Virus record (IMG/VR): IMGVR_UViG_3300023296_000994
Source of the DNA: a virus
Length of the DNA: 64,000 nt
Strand: one strand, 5' to 3'
Positions 2,568 to 10,358 of the stretch are shown here, in pieces. Positions within the stretch are counted from its first letter, which is position 1; every line of letters begins with the position of its first letter. The position numbers were made by a program, and so were the translations under genes. The notes below the pieces were generated by a model. That model was given only the letters and a program-made list of their open reading frames with translations, was not told the DNA's origin and made no database searches.

Positions 2568-3791
2568 TTATCGACCAACTTCACTTAAATATTTAGATTT
2601 CATTTCGTCCCATGAGATACCAACTGCATCAATGTAATACAAATGGTCTGGCTTAAGCCTTCCTTCTGTATGTAGCTTAGTATAACGTCTAATTGCTTTA
2701 GGTTTCCACCAATTATTAATGTAATCAATACCCTCTACAAACTTCTTTTTCATAACAAGTTCGTCTTCGGATATTTTTCCACATAAAAAGTCATTGCCAT
2801 TATCATATATAAATGCTCCGTAACAACCACGTTTGAACCCGTGCTGATACTTAGACTGTGATATTTTACATTCGGAAAATATTTTACTAATTATTTTCTG
2901 TTTGATTCCACTTACTGGGCCGCTGCGTGTATTGTCACCTTCTTCTATAGGGAGACCATCTTTACCACGTTCTTCTGTCACATTTATTTCATACCATTGA
3001 GTACGGTTTTCTTTTATCCATTGGTGCCACGGAGTATAAATTGAATCATCCGGCTTAATACTAATTTTCCCGGCGGATTCACCCAAAGTTTTGAAATGGG
3101 GAATAGCGTTATACTGTGAATGAATACCGTATAATGATGTTGTACCTACTGCTACAAGTGTCTGACCATACGATGATTTCCAATAATCCCTAACATCAGG
3201 GGTTGTTGTCATCGTTGCTATCAATTTTCCACCTAAGAAATTATAACCAAGTGGCTGTGTACATACAATGGTAGATGCTATACTTGTGTGGTTTAGTTTT
3301 CCGGCGGCAAATTTATCTTGTAAAGTCCACCCAATATATTTATCACGTACAGCAAGAGAAGTTATATCCGATGCCATTGATACTTGACCTAATAACTTAC
3401 CACTTACCCTATCCTTTATATTCAATTTGACATTTCGTCCTGGGTTAGGAGTCCAACTCATAGTATGAATCATACGGCGTATGTGGCTCCACTTAGTAGA
3501 TTCCTTTTCCGTTGTTACTATTTCAACGTAAGGGTCCAAGTTTTCTATTTCTCTTACCGTCAAATCATAATCATATATATCGGTGGGATTCCACTGATTA
3601 TCATATAGCTCTGCCAGTAGCGATTTATTTTTAATCACGGCTGGATCTTGAAGTTCAACCCATTTTTTATATAGGGTTTGTTCTTCCACAGTCATACTTG
3701 CCAACGTATCTAAGTTCTGAATTAAATTCTGCTTTTCTTTTGTAAAATCAAATTCATCATCAGGTACTTCGCTGTCCCAAAATGGATTCAT
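2568..3791 (-). CDS. DUF4338/DruA-like protein (putative GNAT-like fold), possibly DNA modification
   Basis: PGRN, RDKYIGW, QPLGYNFLGGKL, TTSLYG..SQYN motifs recalled from this family; sits within the replisome genes. Confidence 0.6.
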   Translation of the reverse strand: MNPFWDSEVPDDEFDFTKEKQNLIQNLDTLASMTVEEQTLYKKWVELQDPAVIKNKSLLAELYDNQWNPTDIYDYDLTVREIENLDPYVEIVTTEKESTKWSHIRRMIHTMSWTPNPGRNVKLNIKDRVSGKLLGQVSMASDITSLAVRDKYIGWTLQDKFAAGKLNHTSIASTIVCTQPLGYNFLGGKLIATMTTTPDVRDYWKSSYGQTLVAVGTTSLYGIHSQYNAIPHFKTLGESAGKISIKPDDSIYTPWHQWIKENRTQWYEINVTEERGKDGLPIEEGDNTRSGPVSGIKQKIISKIFSECKISQSKYQHGFKRGCYGAFIYDNGNDFLCGKISEDELVMKKKFVEGIDYINNWWKPKAIRRYTKLHTEGRLKPDHLYYIDAVGISWDEMKSKYLSEVGR

Positions 3792-4486
3792 TACGCTAAC
3801 TTGACCAAGTAATATTCAGATGTATAATCCGCCGTAGCGAATGTTAAATGACATAACCCTTTACTTGAAATCTTCATTGATGCACTTTCACTATTCTTAT
3901 TAGCAACAAGAATTGACTTTAAATAATCTGCTGAAAATTGAATGGGCTTCATATCGCCGGATGATGTACATTTAACTACCATTGATACACGATTGGTGTT
4001 CAGTGTGGAATATCCTAAGATAATTTCGCCTGAGTCTGCTGAATAGCTAAATGTAAATTTATCACTATCAGGAAGAGCTGCTTTAGATTTGATGAATCGA
4101 GTGATGAAATCAATATCAAGTTTAATGTCAGCTTCAAAATCGGGAATCTGCTTCATTTCTGGTACATCGGGAATAACTGCCATGTCCGATAAAACGTATG
4201 TTACTGCTGTATTACTATCAGACAACTTAATTGTACTATCAGAGTGTCTAACCTTAATGTCAGAATCAAGTACAGTTAACATCGATTTGAGTTGACTGGT
4301 TGTATATATACCAAATTCTCCAGCAGGAAAATCGGGTTCGTTTGATGTTACATTACCCAACAATGTTTTATCATCGGATATAAATGATACATACATTCCA
4401 GCGGAATCTGCTGAAATTTTAACAGATTCAACTTCACCTGATAGATTGTATCGGGTTATAAATCCGTCTAATTTAGATTTGTTCAT
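3791..4486 (-). CDS. Sliding clamp (T4 gp45-like)
   Basis: 231 aa; GEFGIY..SQL, ISSKGL..LTF....YTSEYYLV C-terminus; between polymerase and clamp loader. Confidence 0.85.
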   Translation of the reverse strand: MNKSKLDGFITRYNLSGEVESVKISADSAGMYVSFISDDKTLLGNVTSNEPDFPAGEFGIYTTSQLKSMLTVLDSDIKVRHSDSTIKLSDSNTAVTYVLSDMAVIPDVPEMKQIPDFEADIKLDIDFITRFIKSKAALPDSDKFTFSYSADSGEIILGYSTLNTNRVSMVVKCTSSGDMKPIQFSADYLKSILVANKNSESASMKISSKGLCHLTFATADYTSEYYLVKLA

Positions 4487-4514
4487 AGTTTACTTTACTT
4501 TTTTGGAGTGATTA

Positions 4515-4545
4515 CAATATAAGGATAATTACTGATAATACCAAA
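4515..4545 (-). promoter_or_regulatory. Putative promoter TTTGG-N19-TATATTG upstream of sliding clamp
   Basis: Exact motif and spacing. Confidence 0.65.
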
Positions 4546-4556
4546 TTATTATCAGG

Positions 4557-5461
4557 TTAAAATGAAAAGAATTGTGATGCGGTTTCCAAATTTTCATTTG
4601 GTAGTTCCCATCCAAGTGACGTATAGAATTGTTCCAACTTCTTACCGATTTCACTATTCCATATCTGATCATAATCAATGTATGTATTGATTATATTTAG
4701 GATTTCATCGGAATCTTTGTAGCCTGTGAAGGCAACTGATTCCAATCCAAGATTATTATGTAGTAAATATACCCACTTGATTTTATCACCGTCCTTAATC
4801 GGTTCATACTTAGTAGTAAGATTATAATGTGTAAGTAGTTGATTATGGGCTATACATGATTTGACGTGAGCAGGTGTACCTTTGGTAAACGCACCTAATA
4901 ATTGGTCTTTATAAGTGTATTTACTTATACCCTTTACACCTGAATTACGTCCCAATGATGTAATCGGTTGGTTAGATATATCTTTTCTGTATGCCAGAAT
5001 TTTGTTATCCACTGCCACCTTATTTTCAACTTTAAGTATGTCCATCAGTACCTCAGACATAATAGTTTTGAAGTATGGTGGAAATGATGACCTACGTACA
5101 TCTAGCCCCTTTACATCAAGTTTATCACAGTTAACCCCCTTATCATTAATAATCCACTGAGCATATCGTTTCTTTGCAACCCAGAATGCGCTCTTAGCAA
5201 TTGTTTCTTGTTTGATATTAAATCGATGTGATTCAATATTAAACATTCGAGTGGCCATAACATCATATGTCGAGTTAATATGATTTTGAATTTCACCTGC
5301 TACTGATAGAATGGCAGGTATCATTTGATCATCATTGTTTTCATCAATATCTGGATTACGTGTTTTTACAAGCGGCGTTGATTCGTAGAATACTGAGTCA
5401 GTTAAGTGTCCACGTAAATGTTATAATCTACGTGGACTTTTTCAATTTTTTTGATTTTCAT
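4557..5461 (-). CDS. Family-B DNA polymerase, C-terminal subunit (palm motif C + thumb); needs recoding at 5400-5407
   Basis: ATG 5461 gives MKIKKIEKVHVDYNIYVDT*; shifted frame from 5402 gives TDSVFYES...KKRYA...VKGLDVRRSS...IKDGDKIKWVYL; the ORF-track start (5324) omits the catalytic DTDS motif. Confidence 0.85.
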
Positions 5462-6126
5462 AAATAATAATAAATTCACACCCTAGATGGGTTGTTATTT
5501 CGTTTTGTCTTATTTTATCCTTTTCAATTCGATTAGTATGGAATGATTCGTAATATTCAATTACGATATTTTTTTCCTTACTATATCCATCAACCCAGTA
5601 GCCAAGTTCTTTAATATAAAATTCTCCGCCATTTTCGGCGTGTTGGAGGTCTACTATATCAAGTTCTTTTGCTTTGGCCTCAATGATGGAAATTGATGAT
5701 GGATTATAGTTTGGAGAAATACCATGCTTGGATATCAATTCGTCAATTCTCTTTAATCTTAGTTTCCTAACACTTTTGGGATTATCCATCGGATTCTTAC
5801 CAACCGAAGTCCAATACTTATATCGTATTTTCTTCATCGCGGCGGTTGCATTTTTCTTCCAAGTCGGGTGTTTATTTCTAGTTTCTATCATTGAATCAAT
5901 ACTATCCTTGCTATGTCGTTTTCCTTTAAATGGATTTTTATCACCACGAACATCAGCGTGATTCTTACTTAGACTTTCTTTATGTTTATCACTAAATAAT
6001 TTACCTGTCTTAGAACAACTCAAACATTTCTTATTTTCAGCTATAGCTTTTTCATGAAACCATTTAGTTTTAATTGTTATTTCGATGCCGCAAGTGGGAC
6101 AATTTCGTACATATTTTCATCATCAT
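5442..6126 (-). mobile_element. Free-standing homing endonuclease (Zn finger + NUMOD3-like repeats + Vsr-like/PD-(D/E)xK domain) inside the polB locus
   Basis: CPTC..CLSC (frame open from 6116), HKESLSKNH, KNPFKGKRHS, GYWVDGY...IVIEYYESFH; RBS GGAG and ATGs at 6120-6126 are one base out of frame. Confidence 0.75.
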
Positions 6127-6172
6127 ATCTCCTATAATAAGTATATGATTATTCAACTTTCTGTATGGAGTA

Positions 6173-8116
6173 CTAGACAACAATATCATCATCTTCCGTT
6201 AATTCACCAACTTGCTTCTTACTACCATCCATTAACGTAACAAATTCATTTACACCAAATATTAATTCTTTGCCATTTTCTAGTGTGAGTTTATGTGGAT
6301 TTATGTGTTCATTGTAGTATGCGTTGGCAATCTTTTCCGTAGTTTTAATAATGGTTTGACCACACTCTGTAACAGCTGCAGCATTATCAAGGTCATAAAA
6401 TCTGAACGTGGCAAGCCCAAGACAGCCATATAAACTATTAAGCATGATTTTTTGGGTATGCTGCCTTCTATCGTAGAATTTATACAAATCGGTGGCTCCG
6501 GCCTTACCGTGTGATTTCATTAACTTTGTATATTCTGTTCGTTTTTTAAACCAAACATCTAAGATTTCTGCAATGACACCAACTTTATCCTGTCTATACA
6601 ATACACCATTGGATGATACCGAATAGTTAGATTCTGATAATAGCTCTTGGAATTTAGCTTTGTTAATAGCAGGATAATAGTCGCCGTGACTATCTTCAAT
6701 AATGTATTCATCTATTTCATCGGATATATATCGTTCCGTAGTGAAATTATGAACCTTGCCCATCTTAGTTTCTGGACTAATATTTAGGCTCATAATAATA
6801 CTTGGATACAATGATGTTAAGTCCAAGTCATATACCCATTTATATAATCCGGTAATAGGTTCCTTTACATATGCTCCTACAAAATCAAGTGCCACCTTAT
6901 AATCAGTACCAGCTTCTTTTTCTAGTGGCTTTGATAATGTAAATGTTGATCCATCATATGAATCATACGATACAATAATATAGCTGGATGTAGATTTACT
7001 TATTTTTAATCGGCCTGTTCCAGGTACGTTTGTCAGTATGTTAGATTCCATATTAAGCTTCGTGGTTCCAACGGGATGCTTTCTACTTAATACTAATGAC
7101 AAACGGGGTGGTGAATTTGTTGCAATTCTATTATTCCGTCTAAGGAATGTTAATATAGCACCTTCCAGCCATTTAGATGAAAAAAGAAAATCTTCATATT
7201 GAGTGTGACCGGCATGAGTAATTGAACGAGCAAGGTCAATGAATTGTAGCTTACGGTCCATATCTACCACAAGTTCAACGTCTACCAAGTTATATTCTAC
7301 AAACGTTTCAATGTCATCTCTGAATAGTTCATCTAGGCTTCCAACGTATTCTATTTTACCCCTACCCAATACTTCCTTTGCAATAGTATCCAATCGATAA
7401 TTTGCTAGTTCACTATATGTGAAGTTTTTATATAGAGCAAGATAATCAAGGGATGATACACCTGCTATTAAATAACGGCCGCGTCTTTCATTCCAATCAA
7501 CTATACCAATCGGTGACAACCTATTAGCAACACCTTCCGAAAATACAGTCTTGATTCTGTTATAGAGATATGTAATATCAAAATAATCTATGTTCCACCC
7601 AGTTATAATGGTGGGATTTATTTGTTCCCATTTATTAAGGAATGCAAGTAGTAAGCTATCTTCATCTGGAAAAGATTGTACAATGGCTTTCTTAATCTTC
7701 TTATCTATTGATAAATCTGATATCACATATACATAATAATCATCTGTTGTAGAATCATGTAGCGCTATTGATGTGATTGCATTATCAGCATCAGTTAAGT
7801 CAGGTAACCCCGTTACCATTTCAACTTCAATATCAAACGTAACTACAGTATGGCCGGTGGAAATTTCATCACTGTCACCATACGTATCAATTAAGAAACG
7901 AATGATTGGATTTATATCGCTTTCGTGTAATTTACTAGTGGTATATTTATCCCATTCTCCAATTTTCCTTAATTTCTCCCCATAGATAGATTCAAATGCT
8001 CCATTAGCATCCGGTACATATGCATACTTATGGTATTTTTCTTGCTTGTAACCAAGCTCGTCATCCCAATAATGTATAGTATTGGTCTTCCTATCAAAGT
8101 GCACATTCTGATACAT
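6173..8116 (-). CDS. Family-B DNA polymerase, N-terminal subunit (exonuclease, motifs A and B)
   Basis: FDIEV (ExoI), GWNIDYFD (ExoII), YNLVD (ExoIII), DLTSLYPSII (motif A), KIMLNSLYG (motif B); ends before motif C with an intein-like tail. Confidence 0.95.
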   Translation of the reverse strand: MYQNVHFDRKTNTIHYWDDELGYKQEKYHKYAYVPDANGAFESIYGEKLRKIGEWDKYTTSKLHESDINPIIRFLIDTYGDSDEISTGHTVVTFDIEVEMVTGLPDLTDADNAITSIALHDSTTDDYYVYVISDLSIDKKIKKAIVQSFPDEDSLLLAFLNKWEQINPTIITGWNIDYFDITYLYNRIKTVFSEGVANRLSPIGIVDWNERRGRYLIAGVSSLDYLALYKNFTYSELANYRLDTIAKEVLGRGKIEYVGSLDELFRDDIETFVEYNLVDVELVVDMDRKLQFIDLARSITHAGHTQYEDFLFSSKWLEGAILTFLRRNNRIATNSPPRLSLVLSRKHPVGTTKLNMESNILTNVPGTGRLKISKSTSSYIIVSYDSYDGSTFTLSKPLEKEAGTDYKVALDFVGAYVKEPITGLYKWVYDLDLTSLYPSIIMSLNISPETKMGKVHNFTTERYISDEIDEYIIEDSHGDYYPAINKAKFQELLSESNYSVSSNGVLYRQDKVGVIAEILDVWFKKRTEYTKLMKSHGKAGATDLYKFYDRRQHTQKIMLNSLYGCLGLATFRFYDLDNAAAVTECGQTIIKTTEKIANAYYNEHINPHKLTLENGKELIFGVNEFVTLMDGSKKQVGELTEDDDIVV

Positions 8117-8406
8117 TAAACAGACATTGTTATTTCAGTGATGCGGTAGTTTCCCATATAGCTAAGTAAATCATGTGCATCATCTATCATAAATTTCATG
8201 TTTCTATCACCACCCAACCAATCCTTACGAATAAAATTGTCATATGATATGGGATTAGGTATATTGTACCCCATCGCTTTCGCGCGGTCTTTAATTAACC
8301 TAGCTGTCCGTGAACATCTACATACAATTACATCGGAAGTAGCTGCCGATTTACGTATCAAATGAGTTGTTTTTCCTGAGTTTCGTTTTCCTATATTTAT
8401 TTGCAT
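8116..8406 (-). CDS. Small P-loop NTPase-like protein
   Basis: GKRNSGKTT Walker A, FMIDD Walker B-like; 96 aa. Confidence 0.6.
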   Translation of the reverse strand: MQINIGKRNSGKTTHLIRKSAATSDVIVCRCSRTARLIKDRAKAMGYNIPNPISYDNFIRKDWLGGDRNMKFMIDDAHDLLSYMGNYRITEITMSV

Positions 8407-9543: not shown

Positions 9544-9574
9544 CAATATACACATTTTAATTGACATTACCAAA
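9544..9574 (-). promoter_or_regulatory. Putative promoter TTTGG-N19-TATATTG upstream of glycosyltransferase/polB
   Basis: Exact motif and spacing; only a few nt from the ATG. Confidence 0.65.
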
Positions 9575-10358
9575 AATTTAACGAACTTTTTTCATACGAT
9601 GTATAATGGTGGTGTATTTCATTCATAAACACATCACTATTTTTAGGATAATCCTTTTCAGGATGTTTAAGTAATTGCTTAAGATTCTTTTTGGACCGGG
9701 GATTACCTATTAACTGAATATATCTATGCTTGGACGCTTCTATACGTCTCCAAAATTCAGTTATATTTTGCTTACCAATTTCGCGTCTCAGATGGTCCAC
9801 GTTACTAGATCCCCACTTAGAAAATACAGTTCTACTGTGAATCCACTTATACGGATTTTTTTGTAGTGACAATTCATAATTGGGCATTAATGCCAAATCT
9901 GTATTGGTTCCCTGGTATATCCAATTTGTAGCCTGATATATCCTACCTAAATGAGCTTGGCTGGCATCCGCATAGGATATCAGCGCTTTAATATCAGGGT
10001 CATTTTCCTTAATCCACTTGAATGTTTTACCAAGTGCATATGATTCTATATTTGACCCGTATCCATCATGTATATACAGTCGGGTCAATTCCAACACAGA
10101 ATCTATCGCCAGTGTGTCTGAGACGCTCGCTGCCGCTGATCGACCAACAGGATTACCGTAGATAGCGCAGCCAATTAATACATCGTCTCCGAACGTATCA
10201 GAGCTACTATCGACGTAATATATACCAATAGCGTACTTACATGAAGACCATGAATGTGTGTAATGATATTTTACAATCATTTTTTTGGCTACCACAGCAT
10301 TTATTTTTTTAATAAACACTTTTGATGTATCACAGTAATGTTTTCCTTCTTCTTTCAT
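9567..10358 (-). CDS. Mom-like GNAT DNA-modification protein, paralog 1
   Basis: IVKYHY, VLELTRL, ISYAD....HLGRIYQATNWIYQG, KHRY. Confidence 0.75.
   Translation of the reverse strand: MKEEGKHYCDTSKVFIKKINAVVAKKMIVKYHYTHSWSSCKYAIGIYYVDSSSDTFGDDVLIGCAIYGNPVGRSAAASVSDTLAIDSVLELTRLYIHDGYGSNIESYALGKTFKWIKENDPDIKALISYADASQAHLGRIYQATNWIYQGTNTDLALMPNYELSLQKNPYKWIHSRTVFSKWGSSNVDHLRREIGKQNITEFWRRIEASKHRYIQLIGNPRSKKNLKQLLKHPEKDYPKNSDVFMNEIHHHYTSYEKSSLNFW

Follow-up and report, generated by a model that had tools for sequence, protein, structure and literature searches.

The window, a 64,000-nucleotide stretch of viral DNA (IMG/VR virus record IMGVR_UViG_3300023296_000994), carries polB as its only DNA polymerase gene, on the minus strand and within a lytic-type T4-like replication module. 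As the sequence shows, polB has been invaded by a homing-endonuclease element and split into N and C subunits, and the C-terminal part has a stop and five extra bases within its catalytic DTDS motif. The locus comprises the following features, in which the terms take-off and landing refer to the proposed decoding discussed below.

6173..8116, minus strand: ORF of the polB N-terminal subunit (647 aa), with exonuclease domain and polymerase motifs A and B (PF03104, PF00136)
6173..6301, minus strand: C-terminal extension of the N subunit, ~42 aa plus stop, ending ...KLTLENGKELIFGVNEFVTLMDGSKKQVGELTEDDDIVV, without homology to unsplit PolB
5442..6170, minus strand: free-standing homing-endonuclease gene (HEG), with a NUMOD3 motif and a Vsr-like C-terminal nuclease domain
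5402..5461, minus strand: leader mini-ORF of the C subunit, MKIKKIEKV + HVDYNIYVDT, ending at TAA
5408..5437, minus strand: 12-bp RNA hairpin with a 6-nt loop, its last base directly before the take-off codon
5405..5407, minus strand: putative take-off codon ACU (Thr, the T of YVDT), ACN in all gapped relatives
5400..5404, minus strand: predicted untranslated UAACU, comprising the stop UAA (5404-5402) and the overlapping landing codon ACU (5402-5400), with the same position and design in relatives
4557..5399, minus strand: rest of the polB C subunit, DSVFYES..., 280 codons plus stop, with the second half of motif C, palm and thumb (PF00136)

Read on the minus strand from 5461, the leader consists of the codons ATG AAA ATC AAA AAA ATT GAA AAA GTC CAC GTA GAT TAT AAC ATT TAC GTG GAC ACT, with the ATG at 5461-5459 and the final ACT at 5407-5405, followed by TAA (5404-5402), CT, GAC (5399-5397) and TCA; the first frame is MKIKKIEKVHVDYNIYVDT-stop. 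A second ACT (5402-5400) shares the final A of TAA, and after the five extra bases the frame picks up as DSVFYES. This second frame reads ...RRL*HLRGHLTDSVFYES... and is open until the stop at 4557, with a stop upstream and no ATG, GTG or TTG ahead of TDS. An earlier note on this DNA had described the same succession of ACT, TAA and a second ACT 5 nt on, with a frame continuing to the C terminus, and our reading reproduces it exactly; its statement that the downstream frame has an upstream stop and lacks a start codon before TDS was borne out by frame translation. The PolB of Microcystis phage Mel-JY01, which is uninterrupted, reads ...KDYIQYIDTDSVFVSSLPLVKNRYPDID and, because it is contiguous there, the two pieces encoded in the window must adjoin in the protein. 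YVDT and DSVFYES align onto the contiguous YIDTDSVF of Mel-JY01 and 48 unsplit relatives, with the frame interrupted by 5 nt. By tblastn, the single polB of the window appears as two segments that break at 5402, and no second polB was detected in the window. Searches among sequenced phages found no close DNA relatives, and we found no published report of a polB hop. Motif C of the window would read GACACTGACTCA without the insert.

Homology of the N subunit to other gp43-type PolB proteins stops near 6302 (tblastn places Mel-JY01 PolB residues 1-552 onto 8116-6302). The extension beyond this point (6173..6301) belongs to the inserted element and is inferred to be, probably, a docking segment for the C subunit; a homologous tail closes the polB-N ORF in LR756508 and in the contigs L097 and L105. 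The callable HEG ORF spans 6023-5442 (193 aa); the zinc-ribbon part (6116-6024) is in frame with it, and a 1-nt offset at an A-run (6117-6114) separates it from the ATGATGATG start (6126-6118). The HEG alignment contains a conserved H-AENGGE...VD...N-VIEYDE..H...D..R block, whose VIEYDE..H motif is VIEYYESFH in the window HEG, a gene that is probably decaying. It shares 37% identity with the HEG of L099, a homologue with weak DUF559/MTES_1575 matches, and 67% with that of L101 (alignment A3). Within the leader, MKIKKIEKV is an element-derived N-terminal extension, and HVDYNIYVDT stands in for the host codons as far as the first half of motif C, an arrangement that corresponds to the NTE and HomR of the MobA element. 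The leader overlaps the HEG ORF by 20 nt, out of frame (HEG stop at 5442, leader ATG at 5461), and homologous leaders, MKIK(K/T)I..., are present in all split relatives. No tRNA genes were found in the window, so no phage-encoded tRNA-Thr was found there.

Recurrence of the interrupted motif C and its hairpin

The same design, in other sequences, was found in about 45 contigs (~36 metagenome and 9 viral) from many projects, and comprises a Thr codon, TAA or TGA, a second ACN and GAY TCN. Homology-based searches for the break, which are pattern-independent, returned the 5-nt forms ACC TAACT GAT, ACG TAACT GAT, ACG TGACA GAT, ACA TGACG GAT and ACT TGACT GAC, together with rare 7-nt forms (ACT TAGAACT GAT, in L093, and ACC TGAAGCT GAC, in L095). 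Pattern scans yielded 9 viral and 45 metagenome contigs more, with 36 true polB; nine contigs (L104, L109, L110, L111, L120, L125, L135, L142 and L147) were rejected because they match by chance only, lacking homology to polB and having stops in every frame. The TRA stop and the ACN landing codon were set by the scan pattern, and their conservation rests on the smaller homology-derived set, where landing is on ACN in seven of eight lineages; the exception has a 7-nt gap and GCU as landing codon, with a G-U pair at its first position. Among the 28 5-nt cases, ACN is followed by ACN in all 28 (AC being fixed by the pattern scan), the two codons being identical in 11 and different at the third base in 17. 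The same-tRNA requirement of bypassing for take-off and landing codons is met; the matched codons proposed in the earlier note are exact in the window, but across relatives it is ACN that is conserved and not exact identity. The requirement for a stop in the A site at take-off is likewise met, with TAA in 13 and TGA in 15 of the 28 5-nt cases and TAG or TGA in the 7-nt forms.

The 5-nt insert is missing in about 48 unsplit relatives. One contig (L138) carries the gap and hairpin within an unsplit polB, far from any start codon, and two others (L101 and L103) carry a split polB with an HEG and without the gap; this nuclease can therefore be carried without the gap. In close gapped pairs the frame after the gap has dN/dS values of 0.063 and 0.038 and is thus under strong purifying selection, which indicates that it is translated and, in the absence of proteomic data, gives only indirect support to a single polypeptide across the gap. 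We set aside P0023/L149, in which an ordinary deletion of ~7 nt just after DTDSVFYQA represents a different design, and same-design sites elsewhere in the window (48618, 44292 and 39226, minus strand), which are false positives inside continuous long ORFs.

At 5437-5408, GUCCACGUAGAU-UAUAAC-AUUUACGUGGAC forms the 12-bp hairpin with one G-U pair, ending at the take-off codon, that the earlier note had described. Its minimum free energy is -19.1 kcal/mol (z = -4.41), and none of 200 shuffles folds equally well. Covariation was computed on the gap-free class with 6-nt loops (alignment A2) and with a register-anchored script; the MAFFT alignment (A1) misregistered the 5' arms. Pairing reached 96.7%, against 17-43% when the arms were slid, with double changes in 5 of the 12 pairs and a covariation score of 0.400 versus 0.212 (0/500 shuffles), and in the register-anchored arm test 23 arm combinations gave 9.52/10 paired (0/10000 shuffles). 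The middle stem triplets pair as ACC/GGT, TCG/CGA, ATC/GAT, ATT/AAT and GTG/CAC and, because they covary, the amino acid encoded in the 5' arm (G, R, D, N or H) tracks the 3'-arm codon. On the sense strand of the stem, G-U pairs are common and C-A pairs rare, a bias that fits an mRNA structure.

The scan pattern left the hairpin out, and every true polB match to the pattern has a 10-14 bp stem, or an interrupted equivalent, up to the take-off codon; natural loops range from 6 to 23 nt. The hairpin is missing in the 9 chance matches, in 44 ungapped homologues and in 3 split-but-ungapped relatives. A conserved stimulatory mRNA structure, as expected for bypassing, is thus present in the form of a covarying, gap-associated stem, and the search for the insert and a covarying hairpin in related polB genes that the earlier note had proposed found both. 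A 4-bp mini-hairpin around the landing codon was also considered and rejected, the variable pair forming in 12 of 28 cases against a chance expectation of 10.5, without covariation.

Origin of the inserted element

The genomic layout points to an origin of the gap in a homing-endonuclease cassette rather than to the regulatory throttle that the earlier note had raised as a possibility. Compared with the unsplit L078, L105 carries a 1,028-nt insert (tail, HEG, leader and 5' arm) in place of 21 nt, and identity between the two is 71-73% from the insert to ~60 nt beyond the gap and 88-98% in the flanks. By sequence comparison, this near-isogenic pair shows the gap in a co-conversion tract beside a ~1-kb insert with a Vsr-like HEG. 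The gap state requires at least nine changes on the polB tree, and the gap behaves as part of a mobile cassette. A MobA-type order of parts, namely nuclease ORF, overlapping out-of-frame extension, replacement codons and bypass insert, is met in the window, and the L078/L105 comparison agrees. The MobA element itself has the same part order, and its bypass insert blocks self-cleavage (bioRxiv 10.1101/2022.08.31.505936).

The sequence shows that the element contributed the replacement codons up to YVDT, the UAACU insert and the upstream complement of the 12 nt before the Thr codon. The 5-nt insert breaks highly conserved motif-C DNA, the probable target of the element nuclease, and might in this way protect element-bearing genomes; this immunity role of the gap is only an analogy. 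Once fixed, the insert would stay even though the nuclease decays, as is apparently the case in the window.

A free-standing Vsr-like homing endonuclease between gene halves, as found here in polB, has been described for fractured genes with split inteins (Dassa et al. 2009, PMC2677866), and a split gp43 is known from the Aeromonas phages 25 and 44RR (cited in PMC2677866). The resemblance extends to polB in two genes, a Vsr-like nuclease between them and element-derived extensions on the halves. Unlike in fractured genes, the polB extensions are too short (~42 and 9 aa) and there is no functional split intein, and no coding gap is described in those systems. The tail lacks a junction Cys/Ser, the leader lacks a terminal His-Asn and together they amount to ~50 aa; neither tail nor leader had an intein match by phmmer against PDB (a single-sequence test) or in Pfam, which speaks against a split-intein origin without disproving it. 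Introns are not indicated either: Rfam gave no match to a group I or II intron or to any other RNA family at E <= 1 in 4400-8300, and the residual interruption is only 5 nt, so a group I intron separating the two halves of polB was rejected.

Decoding of the interrupted frame

We consider it probable that peptidyl-tRNA-Thr restores the frame by a programmed hop over 5 nt, that refolding of the hairpin on the exit side of the ribosome assists it, and that the catalytic subunit of the only polymerase cannot be made without this hop. The mechanism is inferred, with no support from proteins, ribosome profiling or RNA. On the C-subunit leader, a translating ribosome would hold ACU (Thr) in the P site and UAA, followed by C, in the A site, where termination would be slow. 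The 3' arm of the hairpin would then lie in the mRNA exit channel and, on emerging, pair with the exposed 5' arm, biasing the mRNA forward and preventing back-sliding. Peptidyl-tRNA-Thr would leave ACU and re-pair 5 nt downstream at the second ACU, GAC would enter the A site, and synthesis would go on to give exactly YVDTDS; the junction peptide would read ...NIYVDTDSVFYES..., and plain termination would release a 19-mer. The comparative data support the earlier suggestion that a shift of the Thr-tRNA from the first to the second ACU restores YVDTDS, still without evidence from protein or RNA. Refolding of mRNA on the exit side has been found to promote forward bypassing (PMC7026636; bioRxiv 10.1101/2024.12.09.627546). 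Against a hop stand the third-base mismatches in 17 of 28 cases (e.g. ACG to ACU) and the GCU landing codon, with which re-pairing would in many cases have only two base pairs, or a G-U pair, to rely on. We favor the hop because of the ACN-stop-ACN-GAY design, the 5- and 7-nt forms, the covarying hairpin tied to the gap, the selection on the downstream frame and the gapped polB that is unsplit, and it is the only model that fits all comparative data.

The 5- and 7-nt gaps would each yield exactly two inserted codons if the ribosome shifted by one nucleotide at the stop (-1 for 5 nt, +1 for 7 nt), leaving two extra residues in motif C (DT-LT-DS, DT-RT-DS or DT-EA-DS). Such programmed frameshifting is also stimulated by an A-site stop and nearby RNA structure, and the sequence alone cannot fully exclude it, but we think it unlikely: GAC ACU UAA contains no slippery X XXY YYZ heptamer, re-pairing of tRNA-Thr is impossible at -1 (YAC) or +1 (CUU, CCU) in any variant, and opposite directions of shift would be required at one homologous site. 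In family-B polymerases the catalytic turn consists of DTDS; the motif is contiguous in 48/48 ungapped relatives and in Mel-JY01, and a frameshift leaves the conserved Thr codon before GAY unexplained. The same argument against frameshifting has been made for the Hau3 terminase (PMC10732093). Termination followed by re-initiation, which would produce an enzyme in three pieces (the N subunit, a peptide of 19 aa with YVDT at its end, and a C part from ~TDS), seems to us very unlikely, even though the TGA variants place an NTG over the stop (ATGA, GTGA, TTGA), a classic coupling arrangement, and gene callers start there to give MTDSV and VTDSV. In 13 of 28 variants, including the window, the stop is TAA and the overlapping NTA is no start; the gap of L138 lies within an unsplit polB with at least 144 codons upstream, a severed DTD turn would put charged chain ends at the metal site, and re-initiation offers no role for a hairpin that ends at the Thr codon.

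Neither of two further explanations retains more than a slight chance of being correct. One holds that polB has died as a pseudogene or that errors of sequencing or assembly produced the 5 nt; ordinary frameshift errors do happen in such assemblies, and L149 has a plain deletion. Yet an identical 3,768-nt stretch including the gap is present in two independent assemblies (ENA and JGI), the ORF occurs on 9 contigs, and the same site and design recur in ~45 contigs from JGI, ENA, TARA, NCBI and SRA-derived assemblies in diverged backgrounds; a pseudogene is further opposed by the dN/dS of 0.04-0.06 after the gap, the covarying hairpin and the presence of a single polB in the window. The other possibility is that the 5 nt are removed or skipped in RNA by editing, a micro-intron or transcriptional realignment, with the hairpin as recognition element, and a conserved hairpin beside the insert could in principle guide such processing. 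There is, however, no homopolymer run for polymerase slippage, we know of no mechanism that excises 5 nt from RNA, and it is signals of translation that are conserved, namely a sense codon followed directly by a stop and, in the new frame, another codon with the same meaning.

The proposed polB hop shares much with T4 gene 60 and MobA. In both, a free-standing homing endonuclease interrupts a gene essential for replication, and the cassette has a patchy distribution. The downstream part opens with an element-derived extension that shares bases with the nuclease ORF in a different frame; replacement host codons come next, then an insert whose stop directly follows the take-off codon, and a landing codon that the same tRNA can read. 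Structured mRNA on the 5' side of the gap also plays a part (PMC7026636; bioRxiv 10.1101/2022.08.31.505936). The host gene here is polB and not topoisomerase II, the nuclease is Vsr-like (GIY-YIG in L093) and not MobA, and the gap is 5 nt (rarely 7) versus 50 (20 in one clade). Here, too, the landing codon overlaps the stop, no stem-loop spans the take-off codon and stop, support for structure is confined to the stretch upstream of take-off, no nascent-peptide signal has been shown, and take-off occurs at codon 19, or beyond codon 600 in L138. The earlier note had likened the site to gene 60. The hairpin is indeed there, but all of it precedes the take-off codon, whereas the take-off stem-loop of gene 60 includes that codon, so the two do not correspond; the hairpin is closer to the 5' stem-loop of gene 60, which refolds where the mRNA leaves the ribosome. 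The locus meets neither the host gene and nuclease nor the gap and take-off stem-loop that would mark a homologous member of the T4 gene 60/MobA family.

The Hau3 terminase (PMC10732093) also has short frame-disrupting inserts in an essential phage gene, placed at conserved protein junctions, and bypassing was inferred there since frameshifting adds residues at a conserved site. It differs in having a rare UUA in the A site instead of a stop, in the proposed sensing of host physiology and in the few genomes that carry inserts, and neither a homing endonuclease nor a covarying upstream hairpin has been reported for it. In synthetic and low-level tRNA hopping in E. coli (PMC5009743), P-site peptidyl-tRNA similarly crosses a stop by a few nt to a matching codon; that hopping is unprogrammed and inefficient, whereas polB is an essential gene and its site is both conserved and equipped with a covarying hairpin of its own.

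Taken together with the cassette, the data make it likely, in our judgment, that a widespread HEG-cassette family renders the replicative polymerase of environmental T4-like phages dependent on a minimal 5-nt hop, driven mainly by refolding of the exit hairpin and without a take-off stem-loop or long gap. Natural programmed bypassing is firmly established in T4 gene 60, its homologues and some yeast mitochondria alone, and shorter counterparts were expected and not found (PMC5009743). If true, no natural programmed bypass would be smaller than the polB hop, which would offer a clean test of whether exit-side mRNA pairing alone pushes the ribosome forward, bearing directly on the proposal that pairing of the exiting mRNA drives forward movement (bioRxiv 10.1101/2024.12.09.627546). 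The design is simple (Thr codon, stop, Thr codon and upstream hairpin, in an essential gene), and the natural variants constitute a mutational series, with 5- and 7-nt gaps, loops of 6-23 nt, all third-base combinations and split and unsplit genes. It would also be a second, independent homing-endonuclease element that carries a recoding signal into conserved active-site sequence.

Gene callers truncate or split the gapped polymerases, and phage annotation and completeness tools will therefore rate them as broken. For the window, gene calling gives the C subunit as 255 aa, starting at an internal Met.

The split polymerase gene

The window contains one copy of a T4-type family-B DNA polymerase gene (polB), which lies in pieces on the minus strand, with the sliding clamp and clamp loader as neighbours in a replication module. 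The parts are as follows.

8116-6173, minus: N-terminal polB ORF, 647 aa, with the exonuclease domain and motifs A and B
6301-6173, minus: tail of the N subunit, the last ~42 residues, an extension beyond gp43-type homology
6023-5442, minus: 193-aa ORF with a NUMOD3 motif
Start codon at 5461, TAA at 5404-5402, minus: C-subunit leader ORF, MKIKKIEKVHVDYNIYVDT
Five bases past the TAA, in another frame, to a stop at 4557, minus: remainder of the C subunit, DSVFYES...

Resemblance of the N-terminal ORF to other gp43-type enzymes ends at about residue 605 (position ~6302). The C subunit is broken within the catalytic DTDS of motif C by five extra bases (UAACU, 5404-5400), hereafter the gap, and the frame downstream of it has an upstream stop and no start codon ahead of TDS. 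Re-reading of the sequence bore out an earlier note on this DNA in every detail: the coordinates of the break, the pair of ACT codons spaced at 5 nt, and a 12-bp hairpin at 5437-5408 with a single G-U pair. At the corresponding site, the PolB of Microcystis phage Mel-JY01, which has no interruption, reads KDYIQYIDTDSVFVSSLPLVKNRYPDID, so the window protein must be contiguous over the break. A Mom-like DNA-modification protein (phrog_1384; 9567-10358, minus) and a protein of 407 aa with DruA-domain (Pfam) relatives (2568-3791, minus) flank the replication module.

Recurrence of the gap and its hairpin

The gap is neither an assembly error nor the mark of a pseudogene, as judged from identity between assemblies, recurrence and dN/dS ratios, without mapping of raw reads. 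The C-terminal ORF is recorded from nine contigs, and ENA ERZ27315625 and JGI 3300022885, from separate archives and samples, match the window over 3,768 identical nucleotides, hairpin and gap included. A 5-nt break exactly at DT|DS was present in 8 of 80 viral loci obtained by homology (as ACC TAACT GAT, ACG TAACT GAT or ACG TGACA GAT), the others being unsplit and unbroken. When the C part was used as a protein query, many relatives turned up with genes called from TDS, from just past it or in the wrong frame, and the contigs behind these odd calls supplied further 5-nt forms (ACA TGACG GAT and ACT TGACT GAC). Forms of 7 nt were also found, ACT TAGAACT GAT in two SRA runs and ACC TGAAGCT GAC in two distinct phage contigs. 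Pattern scans matched 9 viral and 45 metagenome contigs; nine of the latter were chance matches without polB, leaving 36 true cases. Related phage polB genes carry the same design on diverged backgrounds. Between close gapped pairs, dN/dS past the gap was 0.063 and 0.038, which indicates that the downstream frame is translated. In contrast, an unsplit relative (L149:450-640) has a plain deletion of ~7 nt directly after DTDSVFYQA that breaks the frame without any stop-plus-hairpin design; misassembly or a dead variant is the probable explanation.

Sequence comparison ties the hairpin to the gap. The fold of the window hairpin is far more stable than that of shuffled sequence (-19.1 kcal/mol, z = -4.41). 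Although the hairpin was not part of the search patterns, every true gapped polB has a 10-14 bp stem or an interrupted equivalent, with a loop of 6 or 17-23 nt and the last pair touching the take-off codon, whereas ungapped homologues have at most 7-8 weak pairs and split-but-ungapped relatives (L101, L102 and L103) just 3-6. In a gap-free alignment of ten sequences, 96.7% of cells paired, compared with 17-43% when the partner was slid by 1-3 columns; 5 of 12 pairs had changed on both sides, and the covariation score (0.400 versus 0.212) was reached by none of 500 shuffles. With all 23 different pairings of arms considered, 9.52 of 10 positions were paired, matched by none of 10,000 partner shuffles. 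The 3′ arm codes for the polymerase residues (N)-V/I-Y-x-D, and the 5′ arm sits in the leader, where its middle codon tracks the complement of the 3′ arm (5′ arm/3′ arm: Gly GGT/Thr ACC, Arg CGA/Ser TCG, Asp GAT/Ile ATC, Asn AAT/Ile ATT, His CAC/Val GTG). G-U pairs are common and C-A pairs rare on the sense strand, placing the structure in the mRNA.

Probable decoding across the gap

The earlier note had proposed that peptidyl-tRNA-Thr moves from the first ACU (5407-5405) to the second (5402-5400), and we consider such a programmed hop probable, on strong comparative evidence and without experimental proof. The pre-gap codon is ACN in all cases, with the stop directly after it, and the new-frame codon directly before GAY is ACN in seven of eight homology-derived lineages; the eighth has GCU, which the Thr anticodon could meet through a G-U pair. 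(In the pattern-derived set the landing AC was imposed by the scan pattern.) These features, with the occurrence of 5- and 7-nt gaps at one homologous site, favour re-pairing of peptidyl-tRNA-Thr over a 1-nt frameshift. The latter we regard as very improbable: no variant has a Thr-compatible codon at -1 or +1 or a slippery heptamer, and such a shift would lengthen the DTDS turn, contiguous in every ungapped relative, by two residues. Re-initiation after termination at the stop is likewise unlikely, since 13 of 28 variants, the window included, use TAA and have no start-like triplet overlapping the stop, and since one unsplit polB (L138) carries hairpin and gap at least 144 codons away from any start.

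The position of the hairpin suggests how it might assist the hop. Given the general footprint of the ribosome, the 12-nt 3′ arm is still covered while ACU occupies the P site. It would pair with the exposed 5′ arm only as the mRNA advances. Exit-side mRNA pairing has been proposed as a driver of forward movement (preprint, bioRxiv 10.1101/2024.12.09.627546), and we infer that the window hairpin may help by this route.

The site would work like T4 gene 60 yet is not a member of that family: host gene and nuclease are both different, the gap has a tenth of the length, and a take-off stem-loop is lacking, with support only for a structure upstream. Among short natural cases, the closest candidates are inserts of 10 nt in the terminase of Streptomyces phage Hau3, which rely on the rare codon UUA and have been seen in a few genomes (PMC10732093). 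A full-text search, with many subscription journals outside its scope, found no published report of bypassing in a polB gene, an absence that is not proof.

The homing-endonuclease cassette

Sequence comparison indicates that the gap came with a homing-endonuclease cassette. At least nine changes of gap state are required on a tree of 82 C parts, four of these forced by well-supported branches, and gapped L105, L116 and L037 fall among the nearly identical unsplit L072 and L078. In L105, 21 nt of L078 have given way to an insert of 1,028 nt (tail, nuclease gene, leader and 5′ arm), with the 5-nt gap 30 nt beyond it. Between the insert and a point ~60 nt beyond the gap, identity is 71-73%, versus 88-98% in the flanks, the mark of co-conversion during homing. 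A second insertion of ~0.9 kb relative to L078 lies directly downstream of polB in this cassette-bearing phage (L105:4387-5310). Every stage of the homing cycle was seen among the relatives.

Stages of the homing cycle among relatives
Intact nuclease with gap: L099, L105
Nuclease deleted, split and gap retained, with remnant and direct repeat: L097/L098
No nuclease, 7-nt gap: L095/L096
Gap within an unsplit gene: L138
Nuclease and split, no gap: L101, L103

In L097 (2380-2500) and the same region of L098, the nuclease gene between the polB halves is deleted; a direct repeat (ATAACTAAATATGgAAAT / ATAACTAAATATGAAAAT) and the terminal codons of that gene, ..KYENKNN*, are left. Both loci keep the split, the hairpin and the gap, here ACA TGACG GAT. 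L138:1-1446 (OLLH01000268.1, a 196.7-kb contig) encodes an unsplit polB from motif B through ...NVHVENNDYVIYVDT, with the same hairpin arms as the window, the gap ACC TAACT GAT and no nuclease gene; it could be either the ancestor state or a cassette that has lost tail, nuclease and leader.

The T4 MobA element has the same order of parts, namely nuclease ORF, out-of-frame overlapping leader, replacement host codons and untranslatable insert; in the window, the leader overlaps the nuclease ORF out of frame by 20 nt. In the MobA element the bypass insert, not the flanking polymorphisms, prevents self-cleavage (bioRxiv 10.1101/2022.08.31.505936, a preprint that does not mention a polymerase). 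That the gap might similarly protect the element-bearing genome is an analogy and not a finding, given the loci with nuclease and split but no gap.

Dassa et al. (PMC2677866) were the first to describe the Vsr-like family to which the window nuclease belongs. An unrelated GIY-YIG plus NUMOD3 (SegE-like) nuclease occupies the same slot in L093 (208-1095), a locus with a 7-nt gap containing TAG; the overlap of its end with the conserved leader gives it the same ..YENKNN* ending. In the window, the nuclease gene seems to be in decay. The zinc-ribbon segment (KYVRNCPTCG...CLSCS; 6126-6024 region, minus) is in frame with the 193-aa ORF but has three in-frame TGA codons ahead of it, and an A-run (6117-6114) puts it 1 nt out of frame with the ATGATGATG start. 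The conserved VIEYDE..H motif reads VIEYYESFH, with Asp replaced by Tyr. The region is identical in two independent assemblies, so a homopolymer error confined to a single contig does not account for the offset. Instead of decay, a +1 frameshift might serve to keep nuclease expression low, an untested alternative.

The tail (6173-6301) and the leader MKIKKIEKV (5435-5461) are conserved among cassette-bearing phages and presumably hold the two polymerase halves together. A single-sequence PDB search gave no intein match (best E ~1). Full inteins were observed in the polB N parts of L001 (1501-4554; LR756508.1), within motif B (KILIN|C...), and of L099 (1-1402), with Pfam matches to Intein_splicing and LAGLIDADG, showing that several mobile elements accumulate in one polymerase gene.
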